DNA of 64,000 bases from Armatimonadota bacterium (GTDB taxonomy: Bacteria; Armatimonadota; UBA5829; DTLH01): positions 20,317 through 84,316 of the forward strand of contig JACPPP010000046.1 of assembly GCA_016190935.1 (NCBI GenBank), given 5' to 3'. Shown piece after piece: positions 6,595 through 34,682 of this stretch. A model generated the notes under the pieces. That model ran no database searches and had not been told where the DNA came from. It saw only the letters and a program-made list of their open reading frames with translations. Made by a program: the position numbers and the translations under genes. The stretch's first letter is position 1. Each line of letters opens with the position of its first letter.

Positions 6595-8528
6595 CAGCCT
6601 GTCCCCTTCCCAAGTGCGGGCAATGCTGCGGATGCCGCTTGCTTAAGGAGCTTGTTGTCCTCCTGGTTTGCCCATCCCTGCACCACGTCCTGGAGTTCAC
6701 GCTTCGCCTTCTCTTCCGTGACAGATCCGCTCCAGCCCTTCACAACCCAAAGTCCCAGCCCCCTGGGATCAAGGCTGCCCAGCAGTTTCACGACTTCGCC
6801 CTGAAGCCTTGGATGATGTTTCGCGACGATCGACAGACCACCGATCCCCTGCGGTTCCTGCGTAAAGCTGCCGGCACCGAGAACCCGCTCACGAAGCGCC
6901 GCAAAGACGTTTTCAGCATCTCCCGGTGTGAGCGCTTTGACCTCAGCTTCGGCGGTTCGGACTTCCAACTGTGAGCCGCAGAGCTTTGCAATCAAGGCAT
7001 CCAGTCCGCTCGGTCCGCCAGCACTGGTCAGCAAGCGCTTGTCGCGCGCGACGAAAATGTAAGGACGCAAATCAGTGTCGCCGACCTGAGGCTGAATCGT
7101 GAGCCAGCGTTTGAGCCAATCACGCTCAAGCCATTTCTCTATCCCCGGTTCCACGGAGACCTTGTCAGTGGCAGTGTCTTTACCAGGCATCTCGTGCTCC
7201 GTGCCGTCGCGAGGCTCTTCTGCGAACCTTTCGAGGGCAACGATATCCCCCGCTTTGCCGTCGCCAGACGACATCGCCTGTGCCGCGACATGTTCGTAGA
7301 AATCGGGTTGGAAGCGTTCCGCCAGCATCAGCTTGGCCAGCACGGGCCGGCTCACCAGTTCATCGAATCCCCGGGCGCGCGCAATCAACTGCCGGAGCAA
7401 CAGCGCATTCAGGAATCGTTTGACCTGCCGCGGATTCCCCTTGGTCCCTTCCGCCAGGATGGGTGCTATCTGGTGCGCTAGGACGAACGCCGCGTTCAGC
7501 TCTTCGACTCTGGCGGGGTCCGTGGCCTGGACATCGCTTTGCGGAAGGTCCGTCCCGAGCCAAGGCTTTCTTAGACCCTCCTTCGCCTTTTCGAGCAAAA
7601 TGCCGAAGCCAGGATGATCTTCGCCGACAAGACTCTGCAGGAGCAGCAGCAGCACGTAGACACGTGTTTCCTGCGCGCCCAATGACGGGATTCGAAACGG
7701 TACTTGGATCAGCTTCTCAAGGTAGTTTCGTGCATACGGTAGTGGTCCGGACGCTGCGGGCAGATCAGGAAAGTGCTGCCGCACGGCGTATTCGATCATC
7801 GCCTCATCGGCGCCGATAACGAATGCGGTCTTTGGAACGAACAGAAACAGCCGAATGGCCTCCAGCGTTTGGATAGCAGTTGCCGGAAGACAGCGGTCGA
7901 GATCGTCGATCAAAACCACGAGCTGACCGATCTTTGCTTGGTCGAGCAGTTCCTGAAACTCCTGACGGAACGCGTGGATCGTTTCCGGCAGGTTGTCACC
8001 GTCCTCCGCTGGTTTCAGGAAGCCACCAATCGCCTCTAGCTGCGTCCGCACATCGGCAGGGTCGATATCCGCGACATTCTGAACCACGTTCTGTAGAGCA
8101 GCGACTGCACTGCCGATCTGATCCGGGGAAGGTAGACCCGTGAGGACATTGAACGCGCCGCCGCCGCATCGTTTCGCAACTTTCAGCCAGTCGACCCGCC
8201 TCAGCAGTCGGCCCGCCACCTCCCTAACCTTCCCTATGGTTGAGCGCTGTCGACACAGCTCCGTGATTGTGGACTCAATGAGAATGGTCTTCGCATCATC
8301 GAATCCTTCGAACGTCCAACCATTGAACCAGAGGACCGCAACATCCCCATCTTCCGCCAGCTCGCTTTCAATCATTTTGAGGACGCTTGATTTGCCTGCT
8401 CCCCAGTCGCCATGGATTCCGATAGTCACCGGACCGCTGCGGTTGACCTTTAGAATCTCGACAACAGTCTGCGAGATTGCCTCACAATTCAGGTAATCAA
8501 CTTCCGTCTCGTAATCTGGAATCAACAT
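6594..8528 (-). CDS. qatA: QatA, KAP-family P-loop NTPase of the Qat system
   Basis: Walker A in VTIGIHGDWGAGKSSVLKMIE and Walker B VVLIDDLDRC. The long helical C-terminal region is typical of KAP NTPases. Start chosen at Met 8528 (MLIPDYETE). Confidence 0.8.
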   Translation of the reverse strand: MLIPDYETEVDYLNCEAISQTVVEILKVNRSGPVTIGIHGDWGAGKSSVLKMIESELAEDGDVAVLWFNGWTFEGFDDAKTILIESTITELCRQRSTIGKVREVAGRLLRRVDWLKVAKRCGGGAFNVLTGLPSPDQIGSAVAALQNVVQNVADIDPADVRTQLEAIGGFLKPAEDGDNLPETIHAFRQEFQELLDQAKIGQLVVLIDDLDRCLPATAIQTLEAIRLFLFVPKTAFVIGADEAMIEYAVRQHFPDLPAASGPLPYARNYLEKLIQVPFRIPSLGAQETRVYVLLLLLQSLVGEDHPGFGILLEKAKEGLRKPWLGTDLPQSDVQATDPARVEELNAAFVLAHQIAPILAEGTKGNPRQVKRFLNALLLRQLIARARGFDELVSRPVLAKLMLAERFQPDFYEHVAAQAMSSGDGKAGDIVALERFAEEPRDGTEHEMPGKDTATDKVSVEPGIEKWLERDWLKRWLTIQPQVGDTDLRPYIFVARDKRLLTSAGGPSGLDALIAKLCGSQLEVRTAEAEVKALTPGDAENVFAALRERVLGAGSFTQEPQGIGGLSIVAKHHPRLQGEVVKLLGSLDPRGLGLWVVKGWSGSVTEEKAKRELQDVVQGWANQEDNKLLKQAASAALPALGKGTG

Positions 8529-8970
8529 GGAGACCTCACCGCCAACACGTACCTCGTGCTCACTGCCCTCTGCATCCAAACTAGGCCTGTCATCAAGTCT
8601 TCTCAAGCGACGGTTCGCTCTACACCCATTGTAGGATAAGCGGTGAAGCTGCTCGCCATCAACGCCAGCGCGACACTCCATCCGCTCTGAGCCGTACTCT
8701 AGAGCCTATGCATACGAGCGCTACTATCAGACCACCAATTGTATCATTCGCAGTCACATTCTTCCAATCCGAGCGAACCCAAGGATGTGTCAGCCGGGTA
8801 ACGGGCTCGATCGTTGCTGATTCGTCGTCGCTGGAGCTACATCGAGCCTGGGGAGAGGAGCAACCTCGGTCCACGCCCCGCTTGCACGCCAGCCTGCGTT
8901 TCTGCTATACTTTACCGACCCACAAAGGACGTTATGATGCACTATCCGATACAGCAGGAGGCCAGCAGTC

Positions 8971-9955
8971 TTGGCTACCGAAATCACTCCTTTCACCGGC
9001 AACGCCCTTGCCGGAAGGCACACTTTCATATTGCCTCGGGTCATCCAGGATGCCGGCGAGGACGCGTCCAGGCGGTTCCTGGAGTTCTTCACCGCAGATA
9101 TCAGGAATCCCAATACCCGCCCGCCAGGCATATGCCCGTGCCACAAGGGACTTCTTCCTCTGGTGCGAAAGGCACAGGTTGTCTCTGCATCAACTTGAGC
9201 CTATGCTCGTAGCGGCGTATATCGAGGAACTTCAGAGGTCTCAGTCCGCACCGACAGTGAAGCAGCACCTTGCCGCTATCCGGATGCTCTTTGATTACCT
9301 GGTGGTCCGCCAGGTAATCCCAATGAACCCGGCTGCATCAGTCAGAGGACCGAAGTATGTCATCAAGCGTGGAAAGACTCCTGTCCTATCGGCTACCGAC
9401 GCCAGGCGGCTCCTCGACAGCATCGATGTGTCCCAGGTGGTCGGGCTCCGCGATCGCGCGCTTATAGCTCTCATGGTCTACTCCTTTGCCCGGGTCAGTG
9501 CAGCAGTGAATATGCGCGTGGAGGACTACTACGCCAACGGAAAGCGCTGGTGGATCCGGCTTCACGAGAAGGGGGGCAAGTTTCACGAAGTCCCCGTGCA
9601 TCACAATGCTGAGGCCTATCTGGACGCTTATATAGCTGCTGCCGGCATCAGCGATGACCGCAGGGGTCCGCTTTTCCGAACTGCTGAAGGAAAGACCAAA
9701 GTGCTAACGACCCGCGCGATGACCAGGAACGATGCCCTGAGGATGATAAAGAGGAGGGCTGCAGACGCAGGACTCGCTGTTAACATCTCCTGCCACACAT
9801 CCCGGGCCACCGGGATCACTGCCTACCTGGAGAACGGCGGGACTATAGAAAACGCACAGGCAATTGCTGCGCATGAGTCTCCACGGACAACCAAGCTCTA
9901 CGACAGGACAACTGACCAGATAACGCTTGATGAGATCGAGAGAATAACCATATAG
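8971..9955 (+). pseudogene. Tyrosine recombinase/phage integrase (XerC/D-like) with an apparent +1 frameshift near 9118-9124 (extra C in a cccgcccgcc run); TTG start at 8971 preceded by aggagg
   Basis: Frame 1 from 8971 gives LATEITPF...RRFLEFFTADIRNPNTR, then stops at 9198. Frame 2 from 9122 continues RQAYARATRDFFLWCERHRL... through the catalytic region (R...HxxR...Y: HTSRATGITAYLENGGTIENAQAIAAHESPRTTKLYD). Joining the two after deleting one C gives the canonical ...NPNTRRQAYARATRDFF... motif. Confidence 0.6.
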
Positions 9956-10000: not shown

Positions 10001-11506
10001 TCACCGCAACATGAAAGACGGGGAGTAGCTTGGCTGTTGGTCTTCCATCAACTGTATCTCCTGACACACCGCATTGAACCGGTGGCCTAGAAAGCATGCG
10101 CCACTCAGCGGACCGAAGTAGTAGAGCAGCAGCTTCGTGGCACGCCATCTGCGCACAAACGCCCTTACCATATCCTTAGCCTCATCCGCAAGCGCAACCA
10201 GGTCTCCTGTGCTACGGATGCAGTCTCTACCCAGCTCGCGCTCAGGCCGAAGCAGCAACAGCGCTGCTATCTCCTCACTGCGTTCATGAAGATGCTCCCG
10301 CACTGCGTCGTCGATGGTGCCAGTCACACTTATACCAACGGCCACTGTCGTTCCGCTTCCATCAATGATCTCACCGTCGAAGTTACTCCCCTGATCGCTG
10401 ACTATCACCCTAAAACCATCGGCCTTTCGATCACTCGTGCGCCAAAGAACTCCGTTCTGGTCCACCTCAAGCGTGTATCCGGCTGCATCTCTGAACATAT
10501 GGCCAAACGCAAACCACGCGGAGAGCCTCGCCTTCCCTCGCACCCTGATCAGCCTCATGGAGGTAGACGCGCCCAGCTCGCACTTCAGCCTCTCCAACTC
10601 TGGCAGAAGGTGCTCATTCCAATCATACTGGGGCTGAAGTTGCCGACCCTTGGCGGCTGCACTACCTTCGAAGTAGTCGCACCAGTCGATCACGTAGTCG
10701 GGCTCAAGCTCATACTTCTCACGTACAATCGTGTTCAGGTGCACCGTGATGCATGGTTCCTGGCCTTGGGGCAGCAGGAGATCGTGCTTTCTCACAAGTT
10801 CATCCAGGTCATGCAAATACATGTCCTTCTTACTGGCCTTGATCCATTCCCTTACGATGCTCACGGCCAGCAGCAGTGCATCCTCATCTGGCCTCAGCCC
10901 AAGGCTGCACATCCGCTCGGCCACCAAATCGCGTAGGTCGTCGGCACCTGTTGAGCCGATCTTGAAGCGGATGCAGCCGGCAAACTCCCTCAGCTCGTCG
11001 GGACCGGCATCCAAATGAGAAAGCCAGTTCCCGTGTACCTCAGAATGCTCTTTGTGCTCAAAGAAGCTGGCTTTGATGCCTCCGTTTTCGTCCACGCAGG
11101 CGGTGAAGAACATATCATGTCGATCCCATGTCCAGTTGCTAACCAGATATAGTTCAATCGGGCCGGGCTTCGAGTCGCGTAGTAGCTTCCACGACCGCCA
11201 AAACTTCTGCAGTAGGCTCGATCTTTCTCTGGTGCGAGCCATCAGGACATCGCTGGAATACTGATTCCTTTGGTCCACGTGATACTTGATCTGGTAGAAC
11301 CGACTCGGTTTCAAGGTCTCAGGCTCGTACTCAATGGTAACGTCGTCCATTGATCCGGCTTCGGCATCCTCGATGCAGACTCGTCGGACCATCCTCTGCG
11401 GCATCTTCAGCTCGAGAGCCAACCACCAAGCGTAAAGGTGCTGATAATCATCGCCCTTTAGCCGCGCGATGACTTGATTCGCCATGTTATCCTCCATTCG
11501 GCGCAC
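10001..11506 (-). CDS. cap4: Cap4-like CBASS effector: N-terminal DUF4297-type restriction-endonuclease-like nuclease domain fused to a C-terminal SAVED domain
   Basis: C-terminal LLLYYFGPLSGACFLGHRFN resembles the SAVED/CHAT-like terminal motif. N-terminus has GDDYQHLYAWWLALEL...IEDAEAGSMDDVTIEY...QIKYH, consistent with DUF4297-like nuclease. Sits immediately downstream of a CD-NTase. Confidence 0.65.
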   Translation of the reverse strand: MRRMEDNMANQVIARLKGDDYQHLYAWWLALELKMPQRMVRRVCIEDAEAGSMDDVTIEYEPETLKPSRFYQIKYHVDQRNQYSSDVLMARTRERSSLLQKFWRSWKLLRDSKPGPIELYLVSNWTWDRHDMFFTACVDENGGIKASFFEHKEHSEVHGNWLSHLDAGPDELREFAGCIRFKIGSTGADDLRDLVAERMCSLGLRPDEDALLLAVSIVREWIKASKKDMYLHDLDELVRKHDLLLPQGQEPCITVHLNTIVREKYELEPDYVIDWCDYFEGSAAAKGRQLQPQYDWNEHLLPELERLKCELGASTSMRLIRVRGKARLSAWFAFGHMFRDAAGYTLEVDQNGVLWRTSDRKADGFRVIVSDQGSNFDGEIIDGSGTTVAVGISVTGTIDDAVREHLHERSEEIAALLLLRPERELGRDCIRSTGDLVALADEAKDMVRAFVRRWRATKLLLYYFGPLSGACFLGHRFNAVCQEIQLMEDQQPSYSPSFMLR

Positions 11507-13373: not shown

Positions 13374-14350
13374 CTTGTCTCCTCCTGGATACCAGCAGAG
13401 ACACCCTTCTCGTGCTGCACAGCTCGCAGTAGGAGCTCCGCTGTCAGTCTGTTGGGGTCCAGAGCCGTCTCTTTGTCAAATGTGCACGCCGCTGGAACAA
13501 TCTTCCTTATGCGGCGACCATCAAGCCCCACGCACAATTCCGCCGCCGTCCTAAAGCGGGAGTCCGACAGGATCTTGCCTGCCCCTGTATAATGCTTGGC
13601 CAGCGCCTGTACCGCATCCGTTAGGATCTGCGTGCAAGCCTGAGCGTTAGGCATTCCGATGTTCAGGACTAGGTCCGCCCGCGATACGAAAGCAGCATCG
13701 ATAGCCCGGGGGAAGTTGCTAGTAGCGACGAACAGCAACCGAGGGTACCGCGCAGCCAGTTGGTCTAACTGAGCCAAGACGGCGTCGGTAGCACGATGCA
13801 CGTCAATGGGGTTTGCCTCTAGGCTCAGTTTGCTTCTATCGGCGGCAAGCGTCTCCACCTCGTCCAAGAGCACCACCAGCGGACCGCGTAGTGCCGGCTC
13901 CGCTATCGTGGTGCCCAGCAACTCGGTTACGGCTCTCTGGCTCTTGCCCAAGGCGGCGCTCGCTAGGGCGTGTGGTTCCACCTCAAGATAGGTGAAGTTC
14001 GAGTTCTTGCCGAAGACCTCAGCCGTCCTGGCGGCAAGTCCGCGCGCAAGCGATGTTTTGCCGGTTCCGGGCTCGCCTACCAACAAGATAACCCCGTGCA
14101 ACGGGATTGCAGCTTTGTCCACGGTAGGACGCAGCGTAAAACTCAAGATAGCCTGGCTGAGTAGCCGGTCCTTGAGCTGTTGATCCACTATGATCGAGTC
14201 CCAAAGCTTAAGGAACTCGCTATCGGGGAGCAGGCGGCTATCCAGAATCCCCTGGGCCTCTACACCCCCTGACATTGCTCCTGATTGCGCACCAGGTCGG
14301 GTGCGCCCCGTGCCAGGCGCCACGCCTGGCCGAAACCCGTTACTATTCAT
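13370..14350 (-). CDS. TRIP13/Pch2-like AAA+ ATPase (Cap6-like) of type III CBASS
   Basis: Walker A HGVILLVGEPGTGKTSLARGLA, Walker B VVLLDEVETL, sensor region FVATSNFPRAIDAAF. Start chosen at Met 14350, preceded by a ggaagga RBS on the coding strand. Confidence 0.75.
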   Translation of the reverse strand: MNSNGFRPGVAPGTGRTRPGAQSGAMSGGVEAQGILDSRLLPDSEFLKLWDSIIVDQQLKDRLLSQAILSFTLRPTVDKAAIPLHGVILLVGEPGTGKTSLARGLAARTAEVFGKNSNFTYLEVEPHALASAALGKSQRAVTELLGTTIAEPALRGPLVVLLDEVETLAADRSKLSLEANPIDVHRATDAVLAQLDQLAARYPRLLFVATSNFPRAIDAAFVSRADLVLNIGMPNAQACTQILTDAVQALAKHYTGAGKILSDSRFRTAAELCVGLDGRRIRKIVPAACTFDKETALDPNRLTAELLLRAVQHEKGVSAGIQEETR

Positions 14351-14466
14351 AAGTGTCTCCTTCCCGGAGCAGATGCTTGCGGTGTGGCCGTCACCCCACA
14401 CCGCTTGTCTACTCGCGGCCATTTGCGTTGCTACTCAACGCAAGCGTTTATTCATAAGAAAACCGC

Positions 14467-15051
14467 TCACCATGCATGCTGGACCGCCATGTCGCCCAAG
14501 CGGTAGTGTAACGCGGTGAAGCTCACGCCGATGGATTCGGCGAGCCGTCGGAACCCGGAAGAAGTCTGGACATTGTAGCACGGAATTGCCTCCTGCAGCA
14601 GGTCCTTAGGCATCAGAAGCCTTGCCGCATAGCGATCTGCCGCAGACTCCTTCATGTCGCGGTCTCCGTCCCTGCATATGATCCTCGTGTCTGAGTCTCC
14701 GAACAGGAGACCTTGACTCAGGACGGCCTGGTTCACGTGCATCTGCCAGTGTCCGATCTCGTGGGCGATGGTGAACCTCTGCATACCTGGACAGTCATCA
14801 AAGCTCTGAAGGTAGTTCTCGTTCAGATATACAGTCCTCTCCACTGGGAAGAGCGACCCCAGAACCGACTCTCCCAGAGGGGACAGGTCTTCGTACACAA
14901 GCGCCAGATCAAGAGTCCGTTCCAGTATTGCCTCCACGGGAATGGGCAGAGCAGGAGTCCAGTCATCCTTGCGCGCATGAAACCTTATCAGCTCGTAGGC
15001 TTTCTGCTCTAAGACATTGTTGCTGAACGGAACGTCAAGATTCTTGAGCAT
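14467..15051 (-). CDS. capP: CapP-like ImmA/IrrE-family zinc metallopeptidase (CBASS regulator)
   Basis: HEIGH zincin motif in FTIAHEIGHWQMH. Paired with an upstream XRE HTH gene in front of the CBASS operon. Start at internal Met (MLKNLDVPF). Confidence 0.7.
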   Translation of the reverse strand: MLKNLDVPFSNNVLEQKAYELIRFHARKDDWTPALPIPVEAILERTLDLALVYEDLSPLGESVLGSLFPVERTVYLNENYLQSFDDCPGMQRFTIAHEIGHWQMHVNQAVLSQGLLFGDSDTRIICRDGDRDMKESAADRYAARLLMPKDLLQEAIPCYNVQTSSGFRRLAESIGVSFTALHYRLGDMAVQHAW

Positions 15052-15400
15052 CGTCCTTCGTCTTCTCCATCTCTTCGTCGAGTATCTCCTTTGCTTTGGA
15101 TGGCCCGTGATCTTTCCATGCCCGTAGCAGTCTGGTGGCCTCGGGGTTGCTGACAATGAACTCATGTATCGCAGCATCTACCTTGTTCGCCAGCGCCAGA
15201 AGCTCATCAGCATCCAGTTCCAGGGTCTTGGAGAGCTTGAGTATCACTTCCTCCGATGGTGGTGGAAATCTCCCTGTCTCGACTTTGCTGAGATAGGTGA
15301 AATCAATGCGAGCGGCATCCGCCACTTCCCGCAAACTCAGCCGCAACTCCTTCCGGCGGTCTCTTATTGTTGAACCAAAAGTCGGCTCCATCAGCTTCAC
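15035..15400 (-). CDS. capH: CapH-like XRE-family HTH regulator (CBASS regulator)
   Basis: TFGSTIRDRRKELRLSLREVADAARIDFTYLSKVETGR is a classic HTH_3 motif. Immediately upstream of, and slightly overlapping, the ImmA-like peptidase gene. Confidence 0.7.
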   Translation of the reverse strand: MKLMEPTFGSTIRDRRKELRLSLREVADAARIDFTYLSKVETGRFPPPSEEVILKLSKTLELDADELLALANKVDAAIHEFIVSNPEATRLLRAWKDHGPSKAKEILDEEMEKTKDDAQES

Positions 15401-15450
15401 CGATTTATTCTACCATATTGTTGAGTATGTATGCAACATGCAACCCCGCC
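15401..15450 (-). promoter_or_regulatory. Candidate sigma-70 promoter for capH: TTGCAT-(18 nt)-TAGAAT on the minus strand
   Basis: Reverse complement of 15401-15450 reads atgTTGCATacatactcaacaatatggTAGAATaaatcggtgaagctg, directly upstream of the capH start. Confidence 0.3.
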
Positions 15451-15464
15451 GGGGGATATCGCTG

Positions 15465-16484
15465 TCAGGTGAGTCTGCGAAGGCATGAGGCCAGTAGCGA
15501 GAGCAGTTCAGCCAGCCTCAGCACTGCCTTTTCTCGGATCACCAGCCGCTCGCCCACTCTGTAGGCCCTATCGCCGGTCTTGTCGATGTATTCCTGATCA
15601 ATGATCCCGTCCTTATGCGCCAGTAGATGTCGCTGCTGAAAGTATCTTACCAGTTCCTCAAGATCCGGCCTGGGGACGAGCTCGTCATAACCTTTACCAG
15701 CAGCCTTCCGCCACAGATCGCTCGATTCCGCAATACTCTGGAACACATTCTTGCGGCGCTTGAAATGGCTGGCAGTGGGAAGCAAGTCGAAAGTAGCCTC
15801 GGCGAATCGCTGAAAGGCCGCAACGAGTTTCGTGAAGGACTCCTCCAACATCAGCCGCTGCACGTTCTCAGCGGTATCGCGGTCCGGCATTGACTGTCGG
15901 ATATCTGGGATGTGCGCCACAGTCTTTCTGACGGCATCTACGGCCACCTCGAACATAGTCGCAGCGGAATTGTGGCCACAAGCTGGACAGAAGAAAGCTG
16001 CGCCAAAGGCCGAGTAGCGGCAGTGGCAGCCCTCGCATTCGAATCTCTGCCGCATCATCTCCGCAACTTCGTAAGGCACTACGACTTGCCTTGGGCCCGG
16101 TTTGTAGGACATAGACATTGTGATGAACCCACCGCGCGGCTGCGACCGGTTGAATGACTGTGTATCACGCCGCAGGGCCTCTCCGAGTTGGTCGCTGATG
16201 TAGCGGAAAGCGTAGTCCCGGATGTACTTGTTCTGCTGCTTGGTGTTGAAGGCGCTCGGGTCCGATTTGCGTCCGCAGATAGGACAGTAGGCTTCCTCTT
16301 CGGGCACCTTCTCCTTCCAGTCGTCCATCATCACCTTGAACTCACTCTTGCACCGTGAAGACGGGCACTTCCGGTCCAGATAGCCGTCATCGTCGAGTGG
16401 CATTGGGATGGGAGCGCTCACACTGTCACCCCATTGGCGGAGCAGACGCTGCGTCTGATCGAACATAGCTGCCTCCTGAGCCAT
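15465..16484 (-). CDS. Double zinc-ribbon protein with C-terminal alpha-helical domain carrying an HEPN-like Rx4H motif (QRHLLAH); function unknown
   Basis: Two CxxC...CxxC clusters (CPSSRC...CPICG; CEGCHC...CPACGH), then a helical C-terminal half with RHLLAH. Overlaps the upstream GHKL gene by about 40-59 nt, suggesting translational coupling. Confidence 0.35.
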   Translation of the reverse strand: MAQEAAMFDQTQRLLRQWGDSVSAPIPMPLDDDGYLDRKCPSSRCKSEFKVMMDDWKEKVPEEEAYCPICGRKSDPSAFNTKQQNKYIRDYAFRYISDQLGEALRRDTQSFNRSQPRGGFITMSMSYKPGPRQVVVPYEVAEMMRQRFECEGCHCRYSAFGAAFFCPACGHNSAATMFEVAVDAVRKTVAHIPDIRQSMPDRDTAENVQRLMLEESFTKLVAAFQRFAEATFDLLPTASHFKRRKNVFQSIAESSDLWRKAAGKGYDELVPRPDLEELVRYFQQRHLLAHKDGIIDQEYIDKTGDRAYRVGERLVIREKAVLRLAELLSLLASCLRRLT

Positions 16485-18459
16485 TCTTCTCGTCAGTAAT
16501 CAAGCACTCTGGTATATGGTCAGAGTGCCGTCTGCGAAGGTACTGCAGTGCCGTCTCGCAGTCCGGTTGGTACTGGAGATGGTCCTCGTAGAACTTGAGT
16601 CGTGCTTTGCAGTCCTCAATGACCTGGCCCCATGTCTTCACCCAGATTCTGGTCTTGCCATCGTCGCTCTCGTATAGCAGTCCCAGCGGCTTGTCCTTCT
16701 GCCGCGCCATCCGTTGCACCGGATCTGCGATCTCGTTCGAAAGCAACCAGAACACCCAGCGCGTGCCAGTATCTTTGAAGCGCTCGTCGGCTTCCACGGC
16801 AAATGCGTAGTCCTGAATCTGGGTCATGGCCTTCTGATCGATCTTCTTCCTCGGTGCCTTGAGCTCTATGACCAGGTGCTCCCGCTCCTCCACCCGAGGC
16901 TGAGGCACACGCCGCGAGAGCATTAGGTCCACTATCCCCTTGCTGCCGTCGGCACGCAGCACCGGTGCCGCGACCTCATCCTTACGCCCCAGCAGTTTCA
17001 GGTGCTTCCTCAGCACTTCATCGAGAGACTGGTCGTCAACGCTGAGGTGGAACTCCTCGCCGAAGATCCAAGTGTGGTCCGCAAGCACTCGGTGCAGCTG
17101 GCTTCGCTCCCGTAGAGCCTCTTTCGACGCGGGATCGAAGACGAGGATCTCAAGCCCCCGCAGGAAGTTCAGCCTGTCGGCGACCGTCTTTGCAGCGTTG
17201 ATAACGGCGGCAAGGCTGGTCTTCCTAAGCAGTTCGGCCAACTCGGCCACCTTCGCCTGGGGGAGGTCCAAGAGTTCTTGGACGACTTTCAACGTCTCCT
17301 CGGGCCTCTCTTCGAGGGTCTCCCGCAGCAACCGCAATTGGAACTTCCTGGTCTTCTGTTCGGAGCTGTCGAATTCCGGGAGGTAGTTGCTTATACTCGC
17401 AGCGCAGATATCAAAGACATCGCGTCTCGCCTGATCCAGTGGGCCGGTCGGTTCGTCTGGATAAGGATAGATGCCCTCCTGCTTCCACTGCTCGATGATA
17501 TCTGCTGACTTCTCGGCCTCTTTCGACCGCAGATAGCTTCGAAGGGTCTTCCTCGCGGATTCGACGAGAACCCGGATACGCGGGTCGAGCTCCAGAAGCT
17601 GCAGCGCATTCTCATCTACGCTGTCCTGTATAAGCTGGCTCTTCAGGTAGGCTGTGAAGTTGGCAGTCGAGGAGACGCCAGCGGGTATCTCATCCCTGGC
17701 GACGCCATTGGTATCGCAAAGCAGAATTCTCTTCTCCGTCTTGAACGCCCACTCGATAACGGTTAGCATCGGATTCTCCCCTACCAGTTCCGCCAGCTCC
17801 GGGATGGCAACCTCCAAGTTGCACTCGCTGACAATGGCGTGGAAATAGTCAACGGGACGGCCATCGTAGACTATGGAGACTCCAGGGTAGTTGCGCAGGT
17901 AGAGCGCGAAGGTCTCCGTTATCTCGGCGATCGCGTCCGGCTGTGTAAGCGACTCGAACTCCCTTCGCAGATTGGTAATCCGCACGGCAGTGCCCGTCTT
18001 ACGGTGGCCGTCGCGCTGAGGGTCCTCAAGCCTGAACTCCGCCAGCCTATCGAAGTTGCCATGGATGCGATAACTAGATAGCGCACCGTTGTCTGAGTAG
18101 TTCGTTTCCCATATCACGCTATGTCCCAGCGTGAACGCCCGGAACCTGCCTTTGCCCGCTTTGCCGTGCAGTATCCGCTTGTGCCGTCTCGACTTCCGGC
18201 CCGGCCGCTTCCATGAGCCGCCCAGATTGCCGAAGGCATCGTCCGCCTCAGCATAGGATATGCCGTGTCCGTCATCTGTGACAACTATCTCGTCAATAGC
18301 GCCCAAGGGAGAGCGGGCAAATTCCACAGTCACTAGCTCAGCATCGGCATCAAGCCCATTCCAGATCAGCTCAGCGATAGCGTGGATGGGTTTGGCACCC
18401 CCGACCACTCTCTGAAGGTAATCATCCTTGACCTGCACCTGTAACGTCTTCATCCACAA
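16426..18459 (-). CDS. MORC/paraMORC-like GHKL (Bergerat-fold) ATPase fused to a C-terminal PD-(D/E)xK restriction-endonuclease-like domain
   Basis: N-terminus IHAIAELIWNGLDADA...IVVTDDGHGISYAE matches HATPase_c (N-box and G1 DxGxG). C-terminus GIVDLMLSRR...EHLVIELKAPRKKID fits a D...ExK nuclease motif. Confidence 0.6.
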   Translation of the reverse strand: MWMKTLQVQVKDDYLQRVVGGAKPIHAIAELIWNGLDADAELVTVEFARSPLGAIDEIVVTDDGHGISYAEADDAFGNLGGSWKRPGRKSRRHKRILHGKAGKGRFRAFTLGHSVIWETNYSDNGALSSYRIHGNFDRLAEFRLEDPQRDGHRKTGTAVRITNLRREFESLTQPDAIAEITETFALYLRNYPGVSIVYDGRPVDYFHAIVSECNLEVAIPELAELVGENPMLTVIEWAFKTEKRILLCDTNGVARDEIPAGVSSTANFTAYLKSQLIQDSVDENALQLLELDPRIRVLVESARKTLRSYLRSKEAEKSADIIEQWKQEGIYPYPDEPTGPLDQARRDVFDICAASISNYLPEFDSSEQKTRKFQLRLLRETLEERPEETLKVVQELLDLPQAKVAELAELLRKTSLAAVINAAKTVADRLNFLRGLEILVFDPASKEALRERSQLHRVLADHTWIFGEEFHLSVDDQSLDEVLRKHLKLLGRKDEVAAPVLRADGSKGIVDLMLSRRVPQPRVEEREHLVIELKAPRKKIDQKAMTQIQDYAFAVEADERFKDTGTRWVFWLLSNEIADPVQRMARQKDKPLGLLYESDDGKTRIWVKTWGQVIEDCKARLKFYEDHLQYQPDCETALQYLRRRHSDHIPECLITDEKNGSGGSYVRSDAASAPPMG

Positions 18460-18709
18460 TCACCTCCACCCGCCACCGGACGTGCTCTTGCGCTAGTGCT
18501 GCCCTAAGCCTACAGCTCCCCCCGAAACGTCTTTTCTAGCAGTGCCGGCAAAGACGCGGTGCATAGCGCCGAGGCCTGTTCTCGAATCTTCGCTATCTTC
18601 CTCCTGCGCAAAGGGCAGTGTTGCTGGCTCGCAATACTTCATATTTGTGTTGCCAGCGGTAGCCAAAACCGCACACCGTGCTCCCGTTTCCGCTAACAGG
18701 GATGGGATG

Positions 18710-19909
18710 TCAGGCGCTGCCCCCACCATGCAGGCTTTGACGTGGGCGAACCTGGACCGGCACTACGCTTTCACGCTCGTCGTCGATCACTAGGGTCTGG
18801 CCGGGACCACTCAACTGCTTTATCCGGGAAGGGAGTCCGTCCGATATGTAGTCTTGGCTCAACGCGTCTATGGCCCTGTAATCATCCCGGGACGTTATCC
18901 TGTGAACAATGCGAATACCACACTGCGTCAGGATCTCAGCATCTATTGCTGCTGGTTGCTGGCTCGCCACCAACAGAGAAAGCCCGGGTTGCCGCCCTTC
19001 TTTGGCCCATCGAATGAGTATCTCCTTCGACAACGTGCTTCGACCGCTTGGACAGAAGTTGTGAGCCTCGTCTATGGCCAGCCACACCTTTCTCATGTCC
19101 GACGCCAGTCCCAGGGCCTCACGACGGCGGGCAATCGTGCGCATGCGGAATATGAAAGTAGCCAATACTGCCAGTACAAGATTGCGGAGGCCGTAGCGGC
19201 CCTGGGCGATGACGCTCAGGTCAAGAATGTTTATCGCCTCCGGCTGGAGTATCTCCCAGATCTCACGATAGCGGTGTTCCTCGAAGATTTGCCAGTCGTG
19301 TGCCATATCTAACTTCCTTTGTATGGCTTCCTTCGTCTGGTCGAGGCCGTGCATCTTTATGACCTCCGCCGCTATATCGTCTATCAAGAACTCTCTACCG
19401 TGTCTCTGACCACATTGGCGGACAGCCTTAAATAGCATGATGCCCATAAGCCCGTTGATGTCCAAATCAAAGAGATCGCACCACATTTCGGGTGTCAGGT
19501 CAGACGGGTTGAGCCTCAGCCCCTGAATGTTGATGCCGCGCTTGCGCATCTCATCAACAATATCTGCGCCGCCGTAGCGTTCCACTGGATCGCCAGGAAC
19601 CAAAACGTTCACGTTAAAGCCCCGGGCATCTCGGCTGTATTCCCACAGCTTGTCCGTCTCCGTGAATGAAGGATTCTGTTCAGCCATGCTCCAGAATATG
19701 CCCTGCGGGTCCACGACCAACACGATATCATTGTTGAGCCGAGACAACTCTTCAATGAGGACGCCGAGAGTGTAAGACTTGCCTGTTCCGGTCTTGCCGC
19801 AAACAAGTATCCTCTGGGACGTGCAGCATGGGATACTAACCAGGCTGCCGTCGTCCATCTCTTTGCCAAGGACCAGATTATTGTCTAACATTTCTAGCCT
19901 CCACGCCAA
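18710..19909 (-). CDS. HerA/FtsK-superfamily (DUF87-like) P-loop ATPase
   Basis: Walker A RILVCGKTGTGKSYTLGVLIEEL, Walker B VWLAIDEAHNF, about 400 aa. Confidence 0.6.
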   Translation of the reverse strand: MAWRLEMLDNNLVLGKEMDDGSLVSIPCCTSQRILVCGKTGTGKSYTLGVLIEELSRLNNDIVLVVDPQGIFWSMAEQNPSFTETDKLWEYSRDARGFNVNVLVPGDPVERYGGADIVDEMRKRGINIQGLRLNPSDLTPEMWCDLFDLDINGLMGIMLFKAVRQCGQRHGREFLIDDIAAEVIKMHGLDQTKEAIQRKLDMAHDWQIFEEHRYREIWEILQPEAINILDLSVIAQGRYGLRNLVLAVLATFIFRMRTIARRREALGLASDMRKVWLAIDEAHNFCPSGRSTLSKEILIRWAKEGRQPGLSLLVASQQPAAIDAEILTQCGIRIVHRITSRDDYRAIDALSQDYISDGLPSRIKQLSGPGQTLVIDDERESVVPVQVRPRQSLHGGGSA

Positions 19910-19918
19910 CGAGCACTG

Positions 19919-21046
19919 TTACGCCGTTCTGATAATCAACGGGACTACCGACTCCCACGCCGAGATTCCTCCGTGCACGCCCCACTCGTTGCTTTTCAGT
20001 TCCCTCGTGGTAAACGGTAGCTTCAGCAAAGAATAGGCATTGCCCATGCAAGTTCTAACGCAAGCATAGTGACGGAGACGGCTGCCGCGAATGTAGCGGA
20101 CGTGACGAGAATCGTCAGGATGCAGATCAGCGACCGCAGTCCACTTTCCGTCTAGCTGCTCGCGCCAAAGAATCCCATGATCTGCAGTCAGACAAGCCAA
20201 CACACTGCGATTCCCTCTACAGAGAAACTCAACCAAGGAGTCATACCGAGCCAACAACTCGGACAGATAATGCTTAACAGGAGGTTGGTCCTGGTGGCGA
20301 TGGCAAAGGCCATCTAAGCCTGGTGCTACGATCTGGATGTATCCCCGACTCATCTCTTCCGCCTGAATCATCCGAACACACTCATCGAACCTTCGAATCT
20401 TACACACTTGGCTGGAGCCGAAGACGCCATAGAGGTCGCTGGCCAAGGTGTTGCTGTCAGTGTCGAAATACGTGAATCCAAGTTGATGGCGGTACCCTAT
20501 CGAGAACAGCCTCTCGGATATCGAGGGCTTGCCTATCACTTCCCGGTAGCCGACCTCAGTAGTAGTTGCCCCATCTACGAAACAGGGATGATTTTCCGGA
20601 TCATCCGGCAGGTCGTAATAAGATAGTCCATCCACAACCATCAGGGCTACAACGTCCGGTTCCAGCAGTTTGGCCTTCTCTGCCAGTATGCGCCCTACGT
20701 CCCGTTGGGTGGTCATCACGTCCTTTACCGAGTCGAAGCGATCATAGAGCCTTTCAGATAGCAGGAACGGATCTGGACGCCGGCTGATGTTGTACGCCGG
20801 AAAAGGCCAGTTGGCGGGATCGTCCAACAGGTACTCACGGCGCTCGTCGCATAGCGCCGGATGGTCAAGAAGGTTGAGAAAGGCCGACGCCTCTCGGATA
20901 GGTCGAGCATCATCCAGAAAGAGCAGGTTCAGCGGATTGCCTCGGAACGCCGGCGGATAGGAGTTCAGAGTGGCCGATAGTCCCGACACGAGGGCGTCAG
21001 TGTCGCCACCCGGCTCTCTCGACTCGTGACTCAGACGGCGGCTCAT
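19919..21046 (-). CDS. PglZ-domain (alkaline-phosphatase superfamily) protein, short form
   Basis: C-terminal GVHGGISAWESVVPLII matches the conserved terminal HGGxSxxExxVP motif of PglZ/BrxZ domains. Sits in a cluster with BrxC-like ATPases. Confidence 0.55.
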   Translation of the reverse strand: MSRRLSHESREPGGDTDALVSGLSATLNSYPPAFRGNPLNLLFLDDARPIREASAFLNLLDHPALCDERREYLLDDPANWPFPAYNISRRPDPFLLSERLYDRFDSVKDVMTTQRDVGRILAEKAKLLEPDVVALMVVDGLSYYDLPDDPENHPCFVDGATTTEVGYREVIGKPSISERLFSIGYRHQLGFTYFDTDSNTLASDLYGVFGSSQVCKIRRFDECVRMIQAEEMSRGYIQIVAPGLDGLCHRHQDQPPVKHYLSELLARYDSLVEFLCRGNRSVLACLTADHGILWREQLDGKWTAVADLHPDDSRHVRYIRGSRLRHYACVRTCMGNAYSLLKLPFTTRELKSNEWGVHGGISAWESVVPLIIRTA

Positions 21047-24000
21047 TTCTTCGGACGCTCCACAGTTATCTGGATTTTGCTCTTGCGGAATAGCTCGACG
21101 AGACCGTCCAAGGAAATGTTAAGCACATCCCCGGAGCTGCGGCCGCCTTGCATCATCCTGAGAATGATCTGCTTGAGGTTCACGCCCGGACCGTCCGAGA
21201 TCATGTCCAACATTACCTTCGCGTCCGAAGTTAACTGGTCGTCTTGATCGTCCAGCGGCTTCCTTATCGCAAGCCTTATGGAACGGACCGCGTCTCGGGT
21301 GCCCTTAAGTGCTTCCTTGATTGCGGCCTTGTCTTCGTTGCCATCAGACACAAGCTCCTTGAACCACCCGGGCTTCGCTCTGTCCAGTATTGAGTCAAGA
21401 GACTGAGAATAGGCGCCCAACTGAGCAAGCATTGGATCAGCTTCGTCGGCGGGTATCTGTCCCAAGATGTCACGAGTGTACAGCAACTCTTGATGCTGGG
21501 AGTCAGCCTCTTGCCTTTCTACGCCTATGGCCTCCTGAACATGCTTCGTAGCTTCACTGTAGAGCCGCGCGTAACATCCCTGGATATCATCTGAGTTGAA
21601 CACTTCTCTGCAACGGTAGTCGCTACCGAGATCCAGTTCTTGGAGAAGCTCATTTGCGACCTTCTTCTGCTCCTCGAAGGCAGACCGGAGCTCTTGGATG
21701 TACTTTCTGCGTTCCTCGTCCAGCGTGTCCAGTTGCTGGAAGTACTGCTTATAACTCCCCAGCCCGGTGACGTTTCGGGTCTGAAGATGGCCGGAGATGT
21801 CCGCCCATATTGTATCCAGCTTCCCGATCAGCTCGCTGGCTTTCCCGACATGGGCAGTCTCTTTCTTTAGCTCGATGACTTCCCGGTAGACTTCATCGGA
21901 CCGGGCCAACAAACGTAGCCATTGGTCATAGTCCCGTAAGTAATTCATTACGGCAGACGCTTTACTCTGAGCATCCTTCATCTGCTGTCGCATTTCACCA
22001 ACATCCACCCAGCCGTGAAGCAACAGCGCAACCTTCTCGAGCGGCCTCCCGAGTTTCGTAACGCTGTGCTCTATCAGTGCCTTGCTAGCTGCTGCCTGGA
22101 TTCTCTGAAGCTCTTCGGCAGCGTCCTTGACCGCTGCTTTGAGGCTGACGAGGATATAAGTGTTCAAGTCTGAAGCCCACTTCGATGAGCCCTTGGGCGG
22201 GTTCTGTATTCTGGCGACTTCGGGCGAAGTCCTGAGCGTCTGCGACGCGTTGTTTGCGCTGGTCTGTACGCCCTCGATGTCGCCCTTCAGGCGCTCAAAG
22301 TAGTTCGGAAGCCGGCTGTGCATAAGCTCGAACTCCCTGTTCATTCGGGTCTGAAGGCTGTCATACTGGGCTTCATCCTTCAGTCCGTCGATGGCCTTTT
22401 TGGTGGCAGCTGAATCGAACGACGATGGGAACTCCGGCAGCTTCTTGAACTCGTCTATCTCCGCTTGAAGATCAGTCAGCTTCTCACTTAGCTGAGTCTT
22501 CATCTGATCGAGGTCCAATGGCCGGCAGAACAGGACTGGTTTGCCGCCGGACTCAGCCGTCTCAAAGCTGCCCCGGCTCTTTCCGATCTCCACAATCTGC
22601 AGTAGTTCGTCTAAGCTGTAACCGGAGCAGAGCATGACGGACTTAACATCCTCGAAGGGCACACACCAGCACTCCACGCCGCCGAACTTCTTCTTAGGAA
22701 GCGGGTTGTCCGTGGTTATCTTCTCGATGATTGCCTCTTCCAGAGGATGTAGCTTGAAATCCACCTGAAGGTCGTTCCTGTCAGCGGGTTTGATGGTTAT
22801 TAAGTTCTCAAAGCCCGCGAATGCTCCGCCTGTGAGATTCATCCGGCTGGTGTTGAACACTCTGGCTACGGCGTCCCCCGATTCGATCCACGGCTCTCGG
22901 CCGCGCTTGCAGCTAAGGGGAATGTCGGCGTTCTTAAGCGCGACGACGTACTGATTGACCTTCTGTTCCCACTGGGGCTGCCGAATCAACGTCGAGTAAC
23001 CGTGGTACCGGCTGAGAAGTATGAACCGACAGACGCTGCCTATGAGAGCCAGCGCGTCTCCCGGTATGTGTTGCCCCACTTGCTCTGACGCTTGCTGACG
23101 GACCTGTGGGTCGCCCAATAGCTTTGTCAGGAGTTCGCGAAGAAGCTGCTCCTGAAGTGCGCTCCACTGGGCCTCATAGTCTCTGGAGAGGGTACGCTTG
23201 TGCTTCTCGCTGATCAGATAGAGGGCTCCCAACGGGTTGAGCAGCACTTTTCCGACAACTTCCTCCAACCCCGGATGGTCGATCGCATTGTCCGCAAAGT
23301 CCAGTATCAAACGGATGACTCCTGGCCTACCTTCCTCAGGATCCCCTGGACTGACCTCGATCCGTTGCTCCGGCATCGGATCATCTTTGCTCCACCGAAT
23401 TCGGAAGTGCACGACAATGTCTATCGGCGAATCAGGTGCCCAGACCTCCGTGAAGACTCTGCCAGGGTCTGCATCGTATGGTCCGACCGCGACAGCAACA
23501 GTGCGCTTGGGAAAGTCACGGGTGGTCTGCATAAAAGCGCCCACAAGCTCAGCGGCTCTCGTGTCCGATTCGACCTTGTTCCACTTCTCTGGGATTTCCC
23601 AGCCCTGTAACTGCTGACCCTGACGTGGTTCGAAGATTCGAGGGATAACTCGCCTGATGAAAGCGTCCCGCGCTGAGGCAAACGTGGCAGGATTCGGCGC
23701 GAATTCGCTGGCGATGTCAACCAGGGTGTCCCGCAACTCATCTTGATCTGCACCAGCAGCCTGTCTCTGCAATCTAACCAGCCCGAAGAGGTTGCCTCGC
23801 TTGTAGACCAGATTTGGCCGCCTGATTAGGAAGTCCTTGGTCGCTGTATCTATGCCGAGGCGATCAGCCAAGTCCAGTGTAACGCCGTTTGGGAAGGCGG
23901 CGAGAGTGGTGACCAGTGCCTTGTCAATCCCCTCCGCTTCCGGAGAATCCAGGATCTCGCGCACCCGCGTTGGGTAATCGGAGACAAGTATCTCGCCATC

Positions 24001-25077
24001 GAGGCAGTCCCTAACGAAATCTGAGGGCAAATAAGCAGTACCGCGGTCCTTGTAGCAGAAAACCATGCGTCTGAAGGCAGATACAACCGTTCTGGGGCCA
24101 TACGATAGATCGTTTCTCTCCGATGACGCCACCTGGCCGATTGCCTGCAGAGCTTCCTCCGAGATCGCCTGTGTTCCTATCTCTCCTAAGCTGAACTCCT
24201 CGACGTAGCGTTGCCACAATGTTCGGGCGAAGTCAGAACCGTAGATATCCCGCAGTCTGGGGAAGCAGTTTCTGCCCTGAAGTCTGGCAGGCAGCGCCGC
24301 AAAAGCAGCTTGCGCTTGAGCCAGGAAATTCTCGGGCATCGAGACGAAAACACCGTAGTCTCCTTGGCGACTCATAAGGCCGTTAGCTATGTCGAAGAGT
24401 ATCTGAGAGACTTTGGCCGTGCCAAGGGTCTTAGCCGCCACCTCCGGTTCGTCCAGCATTACGAGAAGACCGGAGTATCCAGCGCGGCCCAGCACTTCGG
24501 TGACCTCTGTGCAGTAGTCCAGAAAGCGTTCGGGGCTTGTCTGGATGCCGATGGTGCCGCCTGCGTTCACGGTGTCAGTGTAGGTCTTGAGGACATCGTC
24601 TACATTCCTGCCGCTGTGCCGAGCGGTCTCCTCCGCCAGTTCCTGCAAGGACTTCTCTCGATAAGACTCATACGACTTCTTGGCCGCAAGGGCAAGCTCG
24701 GCGTGTGTCTTGGCAAGTATGTGCTGGACCCACGCAGAAACTCCATCTACAAGGTCAGTCACTCTCTCCCATTCGAAAGGAGGTACGGCGAATACCTTGC
24801 GCTCCTCACACTGATCCCAGATGTGCACTTGGAAGCTTGTCTTTCCGTGCCCGTAGCCTCCTGCCACCCCGCCTATGAAGCCGCCCAGGTTGGATCCGCC
24901 GACCCACTTGAAGACGGCGTCTACGTATCTGGCAGTGTCTCCCAGTGAGATATGCGTGCGGGCGTGTGCCCGGTATATCTGTTCCACCTGCTCCGGATTG
25001 GAGGATAGAAACGACACTGGAAACGTGGCTATGATCGCTTCCTTGTTAAGAATCAGATCCAGATCCTCAAGTGGCAT
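21043..25077 (-). CDS. Giant P-loop ATPase (1344 aa), BrxC/PglY-like, with long C-terminal coiled-coil region
   Basis: N-terminal Walker A GGVAGGYGHGKTSFQVHIW and Walker B LLVMLDEPE. Large helical/coiled-coil C-terminus. Size and context (PglZ downstream) resemble BREX BrxC/PglY. Confidence 0.5.
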   Translation of the reverse strand: MPLEDLDLILNKEAIIATFPVSFLSSNPEQVEQIYRAHARTHISLGDTARYVDAVFKWVGGSNLGGFIGGVAGGYGHGKTSFQVHIWDQCEERKVFAVPPFEWERVTDLVDGVSAWVQHILAKTHAELALAAKKSYESYREKSLQELAEETARHSGRNVDDVLKTYTDTVNAGGTIGIQTSPERFLDYCTEVTEVLGRAGYSGLLVMLDEPEVAAKTLGTAKVSQILFDIANGLMSRQGDYGVFVSMPENFLAQAQAAFAALPARLQGRNCFPRLRDIYGSDFARTLWQRYVEEFSLGEIGTQAISEEALQAIGQVASSERNDLSYGPRTVVSAFRRMVFCYKDRGTAYLPSDFVRDCLDGEILVSDYPTRVREILDSPEAEGIDKALVTTLAAFPNGVTLDLADRLGIDTATKDFLIRRPNLVYKRGNLFGLVRLQRQAAGADQDELRDTLVDIASEFAPNPATFASARDAFIRRVIPRIFEPRQGQQLQGWEIPEKWNKVESDTRAAELVGAFMQTTRDFPKRTVAVAVGPYDADPGRVFTEVWAPDSPIDIVVHFRIRWSKDDPMPEQRIEVSPGDPEEGRPGVIRLILDFADNAIDHPGLEEVVGKVLLNPLGALYLISEKHKRTLSRDYEAQWSALQEQLLRELLTKLLGDPQVRQQASEQVGQHIPGDALALIGSVCRFILLSRYHGYSTLIRQPQWEQKVNQYVVALKNADIPLSCKRGREPWIESGDAVARVFNTSRMNLTGGAFAGFENLITIKPADRNDLQVDFKLHPLEEAIIEKITTDNPLPKKKFGGVECWCVPFEDVKSVMLCSGYSLDELLQIVEIGKSRGSFETAESGGKPVLFCRPLDLDQMKTQLSEKLTDLQAEIDEFKKLPEFPSSFDSAATKKAIDGLKDEAQYDSLQTRMNREFELMHSRLPNYFERLKGDIEGVQTSANNASQTLRTSPEVARIQNPPKGSSKWASDLNTYILVSLKAAVKDAAEELQRIQAAASKALIEHSVTKLGRPLEKVALLLHGWVDVGEMRQQMKDAQSKASAVMNYLRDYDQWLRLLARSDEVYREVIELKKETAHVGKASELIGKLDTIWADISGHLQTRNVTGLGSYKQYFQQLDTLDEERRKYIQELRSAFEEQKKVANELLQELDLGSDYRCREVFNSDDIQGCYARLYSEATKHVQEAIGVERQEADSQHQELLYTRDILGQIPADEADPMLAQLGAYSQSLDSILDRAKPGWFKELVSDGNEDKAAIKEALKGTRDAVRSIRLAIRKPLDDQDDQLTSDAKVMLDMISDGPGVNLKQIILRMMQGGRSSGDVLNISLDGLVELFRKSKIQITVERPKK

Positions 25078-34614: not shown

Positions 34615-34682
34615 AGCAGTGGTTCCTTCCCGCAATTCACAGACTTCCGCCCGAATGCGAGGCTGATCATCTGGAGGCAAGG

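Follow-up and report, generated by a model that had tools for sequence, protein, structure and literature searches.

The window analysed here, a 64,000-nt stretch of contig JACPPP010000046.1 from an Armatimonadota bacterium, carries on its minus strand two adjacent genes, one (gene 1) encoding a GHKL ATPase joined to a PD-(D/E)xK nuclease and the other (gene 2) encoding a protein with two zinc ribbons and a C-terminal HEPN domain, which we call ZnR-HEPN. Their products are the proteins MBI2842126.1 and MBI2842125.1 of an Armatimonadota metagenome-assembled genome. The initial annotation of the window took the two genes for a translationally coupled two-gene module that matched no named defence system. 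Our analysis leads to a different reading, that the region very probably holds two separate, self-sufficient defence genes which share one short operon by chance in a large defence island. The proposed new two-gene defence system falls apart into two separate genes, the first of them probably a single-gene nuclease of a kind that has been characterised before. Direct observation covers the folds, the conserved motifs, the surrounding island and the fact that the two families occur independently of each other in genomes.

The independence of the two families is evident from a survey of their loci, comprising 80 genomic loci of the GHKL gene and 80 metagenomic loci of the ZnR-HEPN gene with flanks of up to 8 kb, plus individual look-ups; every locus was searched for the other protein. 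No ZnR-HEPN gene was found in the 82 genomic GHKL loci (79 distinct clusters at 90% identity), and no GHKL gene was found in the 81 metagenomic ZnR-HEPN loci (50 distinct clusters); the flanks were long enough for a partner to be detectable in 72 of the former and 71 of the latter. The ZnR-HEPN gene is also absent from 35 GHKL loci on viral contigs, and the GHKL gene from 11 further ZnR-HEPN loci, which are viral, on plasmids or from homologues of 56-63% identity. In total, the pairing occurs in 0 of 117 GHKL loci and 0 of 92 ZnR-HEPN loci from genomes, metagenomes, viral contigs and plasmids. Moreover, all-against-all clustering of 1,859 open reading frames (ORFs) gave no recurrent neighbour of either gene, and when every ORF of the GHKL loci was compared with a sensitive profile, no hidden ZnR-HEPN relative came up in operon position. 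With the partner missing from 117 and 92 independent loci and with no conserved neighbour of either family, the two-gene module does not hold. The lack of a recurrent neighbour in the 82 genomic and 35 viral-contig loci suggests that the GHKL family operates as a single gene. Several GHKL loci have a downstream neighbour of ~340 aa, and these were considered as analogous partners and rejected: they are an integrase, a dehydrogenase beta subunit and other unrelated proteins without CxxC or HEPN motif.

What does recur in the surroundings of both genes is defence. Type I restriction-modification (RM) genes are present in 12 of the GHKL and 9 of the ZnR-HEPN loci, and it is common for either gene to be part of a type I RM operon or to adjoin other defence genes; the other recurring contexts are pairs of helix-turn-helix (HTH) and M78 genes, a Bil-like Ubl/E2/JAB/E1 operon and DUF1156/DUF499 genes.

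The features of the two genes, in coordinates of the window, are as follows.

16426..18459, minus strand: 677-aa ORF containing gene 1, from the six-frame ORF list, as reported in the initial annotation
15465..16484, minus strand: 339-aa ORF containing gene 2, from the six-frame ORF list, as reported in the initial annotation
16426..18453, minus strand: gene 1, GHKL-S5-nuclease gene of 675 aa, paraMORC3/Shedu type I-D type by its sequence (ORF, NCBI model, Shine-Dalgarno (SD) sequence)
17884..18453, minus strand: GHKL (Bergerat) ATPase domain, aa 1-190 (HATPase_c_3, PDB profile matches, invariant columns)
17599..17883, minus strand: beta-rich middle domain (S5-like, clamp), aa 191-285 (secondary structure of the AlphaFold2 (AF2) model, Foldseek)
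17059..17598, minus strand: long helical linker, aa 286-465 (AF2 helices 291-464; without family assignment)
16504..17058, minus strand: PD-(D/E)xK nuclease domain (RecB/Cas4/Shedu-like), aa 466-650 (PADLOC SduA, invariant columns, AF2 core)
16426..16477, minus strand: gene junction (AGGAGG 16472-16477, ZnR-HEPN ATG 16464-16466, 41-nt overlap with the non-conserved GHKL tail)
15465..16466, minus strand: gene 2, ZnR-HEPN gene of 333 aa (ORF, MFD start in all homologues, SD sequence)
16257..16394, minus strand: zinc ribbon 1, aa 25-70 (C34, C39, C61, C64; Cys kept in 93-95 of 95 homologues)
15969..16049, minus strand: zinc ribbon 2, aa 140-166 (C144, C147, C160, C163; Cys kept in 94-95 of 95; weak Pfam zinc-ribbon matches)
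15468..15965, minus strand: HEPN-fold helical domain, aa 168-333
15615..15632, minus strand: RHLLAH, Rx4H catalytic motif (R279, H280, H284; translation and conservation)

Both ORFs exist as initially described, and all the motifs named for them were recovered, namely ELIWNGLDA, DDGHGI and D...ELK (16855-16929) in gene 1, and two Cys pairs per ribbon and RHLLAH (15615-15632) in gene 2. The order given for the overlap was reversed: on the minus strand the GHKL gene lies upstream, and the ZnR-HEPN gene begins within its 3' end. Gene 1 starts at ATG 18453, which has GGAGG upstream and agrees with the 675-aa NCBI model, and gene 2 starts at ATG 16466, which has AGGAGG at 16472-16477 and opens the MFD with which every homologue begins. 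Because these are the true starts, the overlap measures 41 nt and not the 59 nt obtained from the raw ORF ends; the proteins have 675 and 333 aa. GC content around both genes is 0.54-0.58, without contrast to the remainder of the window. Scans for sigma-70 promoters and terminators around the pair gave no signal above shuffled expectation, and an Rfam scan of 14000-20000 gave no RNA family.

The assignment of the first gene to the GHKL/MORC-like ATPases was borne out. Pfam HATPase_c_3 matches the 675-aa protein at 4.4e-16, and a Foldseek search with its AF2 model (predicted local distance difference test (pLDDT) 80, with the C-terminal tail below 50) retrieves Hsp90/TRAP1, the MORC3/4 ATPase cassettes, GyrB43 and MutL LN40 over ~380-450 columns at E ~1e-10. 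The protein has more than 1200 full-length homologues. Among 24 of them the GHKL residues E28, N32, D35, D60, G62, G64, G97, G100 and G102 are invariant, and the profile of these 24 matches MutL, Mlh1, PMS2, MORC2-4 and TopoVI-B in the PDB. An S5-like middle domain after the GHKL domain is supported at fold level only by the Foldseek matches to Hsp90 N+M, MORC3/4, GyrB43 and MutL LN40. The PD-(D/E)xK nuclease, also proposed initially, was likewise recovered: E466, D509, E530 and K532 (E-D-ExK), together with Q545 and Y549, are invariant in the 24 sequences, the AF2 model has the alpha-beta-beta-beta-alpha-beta core of such nucleases in the C-terminal region, and PADLOC SduA (DUF4263) matches residues 405-552 at 9.2e-7 (model positions 200-326 of 404), with weak matches of Cas4, PDDEXK_9 and HSDR_N_2 to residues 467-559. 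Other single-gene GHKL systems, such as MzaB or the Tiamat mentioned in the initial annotation, gave no match: the PADLOC matches at E ≤ 1 were limited to SduA, REase_II, Cas4 and Csm2, the presence of a Tiamat model in this PADLOC release being unconfirmed; NCBIfam MzaB scores 13.8 bits on the GHKL-nuclease against a cut-off of 850.

On this sequence and model evidence gene 1 is probably a Shedu type I-D/paraMORC3 enzyme, an already characterised kind of protein; the initial view of a pair that matched no named system gives way, for this gene, to a published and experimentally validated single-gene kind represented by VcSduA. paraMORC3 was described as GHKL, S5 and a RecB-like nuclease with E-D-ExK, frequently encoded as a stand-alone gene (Iyer et al. 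2008, PMC2292703), and the GHKL class of Shedu has been designated type 1D (Gu et al., bioRxiv 10.1101/2023.08.10.552793). For VcSduA of V. cholerae, one gene was enough to confer protection, both in E. coli and in V. cholerae itself (Adams et al. 2025, PMC12137116), and its E27A or K557A substitution abolishes defence, the phenotype being non-abortive (PMC12137116). Gene 1 falls into the same length class (~660 aa) and has the same domain order of GHKL, S5/clamp-like middle domain, helical region and C-terminal RecB-like nuclease. It also shares with VcSduA and paraMORC3 the occurrence as a stand-alone gene in defence islands and prophages and the sporadic spread over many phyla. The catalytic Glu of motif I is at position 28 in gene 1 and 27 in VcSduA, whereas the ExK lysine is at 532 as compared with 557, and gene 1 is therefore a divergent branch relative to VcSduA. 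Gene 1 resembles the canonical SduA/DUF4263 models only marginally and, unlike VcSduA, shares its operon with an unrelated HEPN gene. A Vibrio sp. homologue, just 38% identical to gene 1, was considered as the VcSduA orthologue and rejected, since its motif residues are at 29 and 536.

We infer an enzymatic activity, a trigger and an anti-phage function for gene 1 in this organism. The GHKL ATPase and its S5-like clamp would dimerise on ATP and gate the C-terminal RecB-like PD-(D/E)xK DNase, which by the published family model would cut invading phage DNA in direct restriction; the ATPase glutamate and nuclease lysine of VcSduA would correspond to E28 and K532.

The second gene belongs to a family of considerable size. 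At E ≤ 1e-3 an exhaustive profile search gave 2,041 clusters (50% identity); 351 of these reach E ≤ 1e-30, and most members have ~335 aa. The AF2 model of the 333-aa protein (pLDDT 84.7) consists of ribbon 1, a 33-residue helix, ribbon 2 and a helical C-terminal domain, which has the four-helix up-down arrangement of the HEPN fold. In a set of 95 sequences of 25-50% identity to the window protein, R279 is kept in all 95, H280 in 93 and H284 in 93, and the eight Cys ligands and these three residues are each kept in at least 93. Because of this conservation the initial HEPN-like call on the 339-aa ORF was right, and the Rx4H site looks, from its sequence, catalytically competent. Pfam and NCBIfam gave zinc-ribbon noise only, with no HEPN family among 24 members searched against Pfam and PADLOC at E ≤ 1, and the family profile matched no PDB chain. 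The PADLOC model PDC-M14A matches aa 17-166 at 4.4e-18 (model positions 5-150 of 152) and matches 24 of 24 members. A search with the N-terminal 172 aa alone, aimed at fusions to further effectors, gave just 12 proteins, mostly truncated, and was uninformative. Thus far the family is annotated as hypothetical and is known only for its N-terminal domain, as the PADLOC candidate PDC-M14A.

The closest functional analogue of ZnR-HEPN appears to be RAZR (PD-T7-4), a zinc finger and DUF4145-HEPN protein of E. coli which works through abortive infection, is triggered by phage portal or ring proteins and becomes active when it assembles around the rings (PMC13017515, PMC9519451). Both are one polypeptide with N-terminal Cys4 ribbon module(s), a divergent C-terminal HEPN domain and a conserved Arg/His pair, and both occur without a partner gene in defence islands or mobile elements. 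ZnR-HEPN is ~110 residues longer, with two zinc ribbons and a 33-residue helix as compared with one zinc-finger domain in RAZR, and its catalytic spacing is Rx4H (R279/H284) as compared with R146/H154. Because neither the PADLOC PD-T7-4 model nor the Pfam DUF4145 model matches any of 24 members even at E ≤ 1, this is a likeness of architecture and not membership.

PDC-M14 is itself a candidate system only, reported as a two-gene cassette FAM_02625>>FAM_00494 that is embedded in known systems 247 times (bioRxiv 10.1101/2024.01.29.577857, supplement); the family of its A protein is found in a pair with a different family as well (bioRxiv 10.1101/2024.01.29.577857). The N-terminal double-ribbon region of ZnR-HEPN (aa 17-166) matches the whole 152-position PDC-M14A model, but the PDC-M14 A protein is short, whereas ZnR-HEPN carries this domain fused to a HEPN domain that no PADLOC model matches. 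Neither window protein matches another PDC-M14 model, so that no PDC-M14 B partner was found here, and ZnR-HEPN loci have no conserved neighbour. The zinc-ribbon domain may be a modular sensor, which fits the record of embedding and pairing of PDC-M14. Another known defence protein also holds HEPN and zinc-binding domains in one protein, and mutation of the histidine of its Rx4-6H motif abolishes defence; its domain order is the reverse of that in ZnR-HEPN, its HEPN domain belongs to another family, and there is no match of hidden Markov models between them.

By analogy with these proteins, ZnR-HEPN is a reasonable candidate for single-gene abortive infection. The two Cys4 zinc ribbons and the long helix would be its sensor and oligomerisation module and the C-terminal HEPN domain with the intact Rx4H motif its RNase; most likely it would act as a latent RNase in abortive infection with a phage component as the trigger, as in RAZR/PD-T7-4. 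It is on this likeness that we infer its enzymatic activity, trigger and anti-phage function in this organism.

Several observations weigh against the reading of two independent genes or against the assignments within it, and most of them come from the only lineage in which the pair was found again. This is a single relative represented by contigs L164-L166 (JGI and Logan metagenomes), whose two proteins are 80% and 79% identical to those of the window and whose gene order is GHKL, ZnR-HEPN and then the same HTH and M78 genes. The two genes are adjacent again in this relative, 2 nt apart, and lie within a block of 3.9 kb: blastn gives one alignment of 3,891 nt at 75% identity, from window 18467 to 14591, so that it starts 14 nt before the ATG of the GHKL gene and ends within the capP-like gene. 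The flanks of the block are unrelated, with DUF1156/DUF499 genes and an HNH fragment in the relative as compared with Ssp/HerA-like genes and CBASS in the window. Since the adjacency is kept between unrelated flanks, on at least one occasion the pair was retained or transferred as a whole, and almost certainly it has travelled together in this narrow lineage. Furthermore, because no terminator is predicted between the two genes and the SD sequence of the ZnR-HEPN gene sits within the GHKL gene, they are almost certainly co-transcribed. As to the assignments, the likeness of gene 1 to canonical Shedu is weak at the sequence level: just 3 of 24 family members pass 1e-3 on the PADLOC SduA model, Pfam DUF4263 does not match the 675-aa protein at E ≤ 1, the solved Shedu chains are unmatched, and a profile of the nuclease domain searched against PDB sequences gave no nuclease at all. 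The type I-D assignment is drawn from the literature, which equates paraMORC3 with GHKL-Shedu. The function of the ZnR-HEPN family is, for every member, a prediction from sequence.

The remaining features of the shared block are as follows.

15401..15464, minus strand: spacer between the ZnR-HEPN and capH-like genes, with a promoter/operator-like element TTGCATGTTGCAT ... TGGTAGAAT (near-identity to L164)
15035..15400, minus strand: capH-like HTH gene (Pfam HTH_31/HTH_3, PADLOC capH; in the 3.9-kb shared block)
14467..15177, minus strand: capP-like M78 (ImmA/IrrE) peptidase gene (Pfam Peptidase_M78, PADLOC capP 3.9e-22; the block ends inside it at 14591)

About 55 nt of the spacer are almost identical between the window and L164 (about 11000-11075), reading GGTTGCATGTTGCATACA..CTCAAC..TGGTAGAAT, and the rest of the spacer is unalignable. 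Because this stretch is nearly identical in both contigs, it suggests a capH promoter with a tandem TTGCAT operator, separate from the upstream genes.

The same block raises the question whether the two genes are a bicistronic unit in this Armatimonadota lineage, a cassette of DNase and RNase, possibly with capH and capP, with mutual dependence or regulation. The conservation of all four genes at 75% nucleotide identity between unrelated flanks, the 2-nt gap in the relative and the 41-nt overlap in the window, the SD sequence inside the GHKL gene and the lack of a predicted terminator all speak for it. We consider it unlikely, however, as the arrangement is confined to one lineage, and the next closest ZnR-HEPN relatives, at 66%, 63% and 56% identity, and all GHKL relatives of at most 51% identity are without the partner. 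All catalytic and ligand residues are kept in both families when they are encoded alone, one gene of the GHKL family suffices for defence (PMC12137116), and capH is preceded by a conserved promoter-like element of its own, which makes it look as if it were transcribed separately. The overlap, moreover, comes from a trivial loss of a stop codon. The junction in L164 reads TAG, 2 nt, GTG; in the window a 1-nt deletion and a change of TAG to CAG have extended the GHKL ORF by a non-conserved tail into the ZnR-HEPN gene, and from this comparison of sequences the 41-nt overlap is a recent accident with no sign of interdependence. Of the translational coupling proposed initially, the tight spacing and the probable co-transcription stand, but both are confined to one narrow lineage. 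Gene overlap or tight spacing in defence islands is by itself no indication of a functional system. A stronger form, in which the Shedu type I-D DNase and the ZnR-HEPN RNase are welded into one translationally coupled operon with two effectors and the GHKL clamp senses phage DNA and licenses the RNase, or the reverse, would be a combination undescribed for either family, and we hold it to be quite improbable.

Two further alternatives concern one gene each. ZnR-HEPN might be non-autonomous, either a latent toxin standing guard over a system next to it or backing it up, in the style of PrrC with type I RM, or the toxin of a toxin-antitoxin pair whose other half was missed. It directly follows HsdM-HsdS in 3 loci (L086, L127, L145), at a distance of 0-4 nt, in 5 metagenomic loci it closes the Bil-like Ubl/E2/JAB/E1 operon, and type I RM genes are found in 9 of its 81 loci. 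This possibility nevertheless seems improbable to us, because no neighbour is common to more than ~10 of the 81 loci, an MNT-like or small conserved adjacent ORF was not found in the loci, and on plasmids the gene is solitary beside insertion sequence elements; its upstream neighbour in the window is a Shedu gene, which is no known guard client. Far-fetched in our opinion is that the GHKL-nuclease is the restriction component of a multi-gene RM-like system with its partner among the neighbouring Ssp or HerA-like genes. Operons of MORC/paraMORC genes have been proposed as RM-like systems (Iyer et al. 2008, PMC2292703), type I RM genes lie near 12 of the 82 GHKL loci, several of them immediately upstream, the GHKL gene is directly downstream of DUF1156/DUF499 in L164 and in one other contig, and in the window it lies 250 nt downstream of the HerA/mad8-like ATPase that follows the Ssp genes. 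But most GHKL loci are without an RM or helicase neighbour, paraMORC3 is frequently stand-alone according to the same study (PMC2292703), VcSduA as a single gene protects E. coli and V. cholerae (PMC12137116), and the upstream context differs wholly between the window and the 80% relative. The reading of two self-sufficient genes in one short operon is thus the one that we retain.

For this reading the ZnR-HEPN family is the useful remainder, as a combination of zinc ribbons and HEPN whose metal ligands and Rx4H motif are fully conserved. Its members come from metagenomes of soil and sediment, from conjugative plasmids and from contigs that resemble prophages, and lie repeatedly in RM operons, Bil-like operons and defence islands, while current models of the defence finders cover just half of the protein. 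Being RAZR-like in architecture and not in sequence, the family bears on the generality of the design of a zinc-finger sensor plus a latent HEPN RNase, and could be added as a model to PADLOC or DefenseFinder.

It is also evident that the pair lies inside a defence island, flanked by type III CBASS on one side and SspBCD on the other as initially described. On the minus strand the island comprises QatA, a tyrosine integrase, type III CBASS (a SAVED-nuclease, a CD-NTase, two HORMA proteins and TRIP13), capP, capH, ZnR-HEPN and GHKL-Shedu, and continues with a HerA/mad8-like ATPase, two large unannotated genes, SspD, SspC, SspB and a serine recombinase. Between the Shedu and Ssp genes, at 18710-25077 on the minus strand, are three genes that may be an Ssp-associated restriction module; they encode the HerA/mad8-like ATPase (399 aa) and two proteins of 375 and 1344 aa. 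The latter two proteins have no Pfam, PADLOC or PDB match; the PglZ domain that the initial annotation placed in this locus was not recovered, the 375-aa neighbour having no such match in Pfam or PDB. At 6594-9955, QatA (KAP NTPase, PADLOC 2.8e-250) adjoins a tyrosine integrase, plus strand, and a large serine recombinase lies beyond SspB at 33019-34884; recombinases may mark the ends of the island or divide it into segments.

The HTH and M78 genes immediately downstream of ZnR-HEPN match the PADLOC models of capH and capP. In published loci capH and capP precede their operon and are divergent from it (Lau et al., bioRxiv 10.1101/2022.04.27.489752), whereas those of the window are co-directional with the ZnR-HEPN gene and CBASS, and in the 80% relative they are followed by an HNH fragment, with no CBASS. 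In the loci with a Bil-like operon, where ZnR-HEPN is the last gene (L099, L114-L116 and L125), the HTH and M78 regulators are divergent.

Some minor observations concern variants of the two families. In two contigs that are unrelated, L164 (1002-7821) and L078, genes for DUF1156 (methylase-like) and DUF499 (ATPase) immediately precede the GHKL-Shedu gene. Among ZnR-HEPN homologues, P0255, P0261, P0283, P0295, P0302 and others have 485-558 aa, with an unannotated C-terminal extension of ~170-220 aa that could be an extra DNA-binding or sensor module; one long homologue in this set has a weak MarR-like match. Fusions to GGDEF (P0383) and biotin carboxylase (P0307) were set aside, as their domains are truncated and they look like chimeras of assembly or gene calling, and the 623-aa "fusion" ORFs in L134 and L137 are artefacts of ORF calling by upstream read-through. 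P0185 and P0196 carry a precomputed PF26408 match, and the window protein is unmatched to PF26408 in the Pfam searched. Proteins of ~270 aa with the related HEPN motif R[HN]LLAH..GI..Q.YI and without zinc ribbons are encoded in L015 (9975-10787, minus strand), where the gene adjoins a GHKL-Shedu gene convergently, and in L139 (2260-3063, plus strand), where it adjoins a ZnR-HEPN gene. As a partner pattern these were rejected, being single cases; the HEPN subfamily therefore also occurs with other N-terminal regions.

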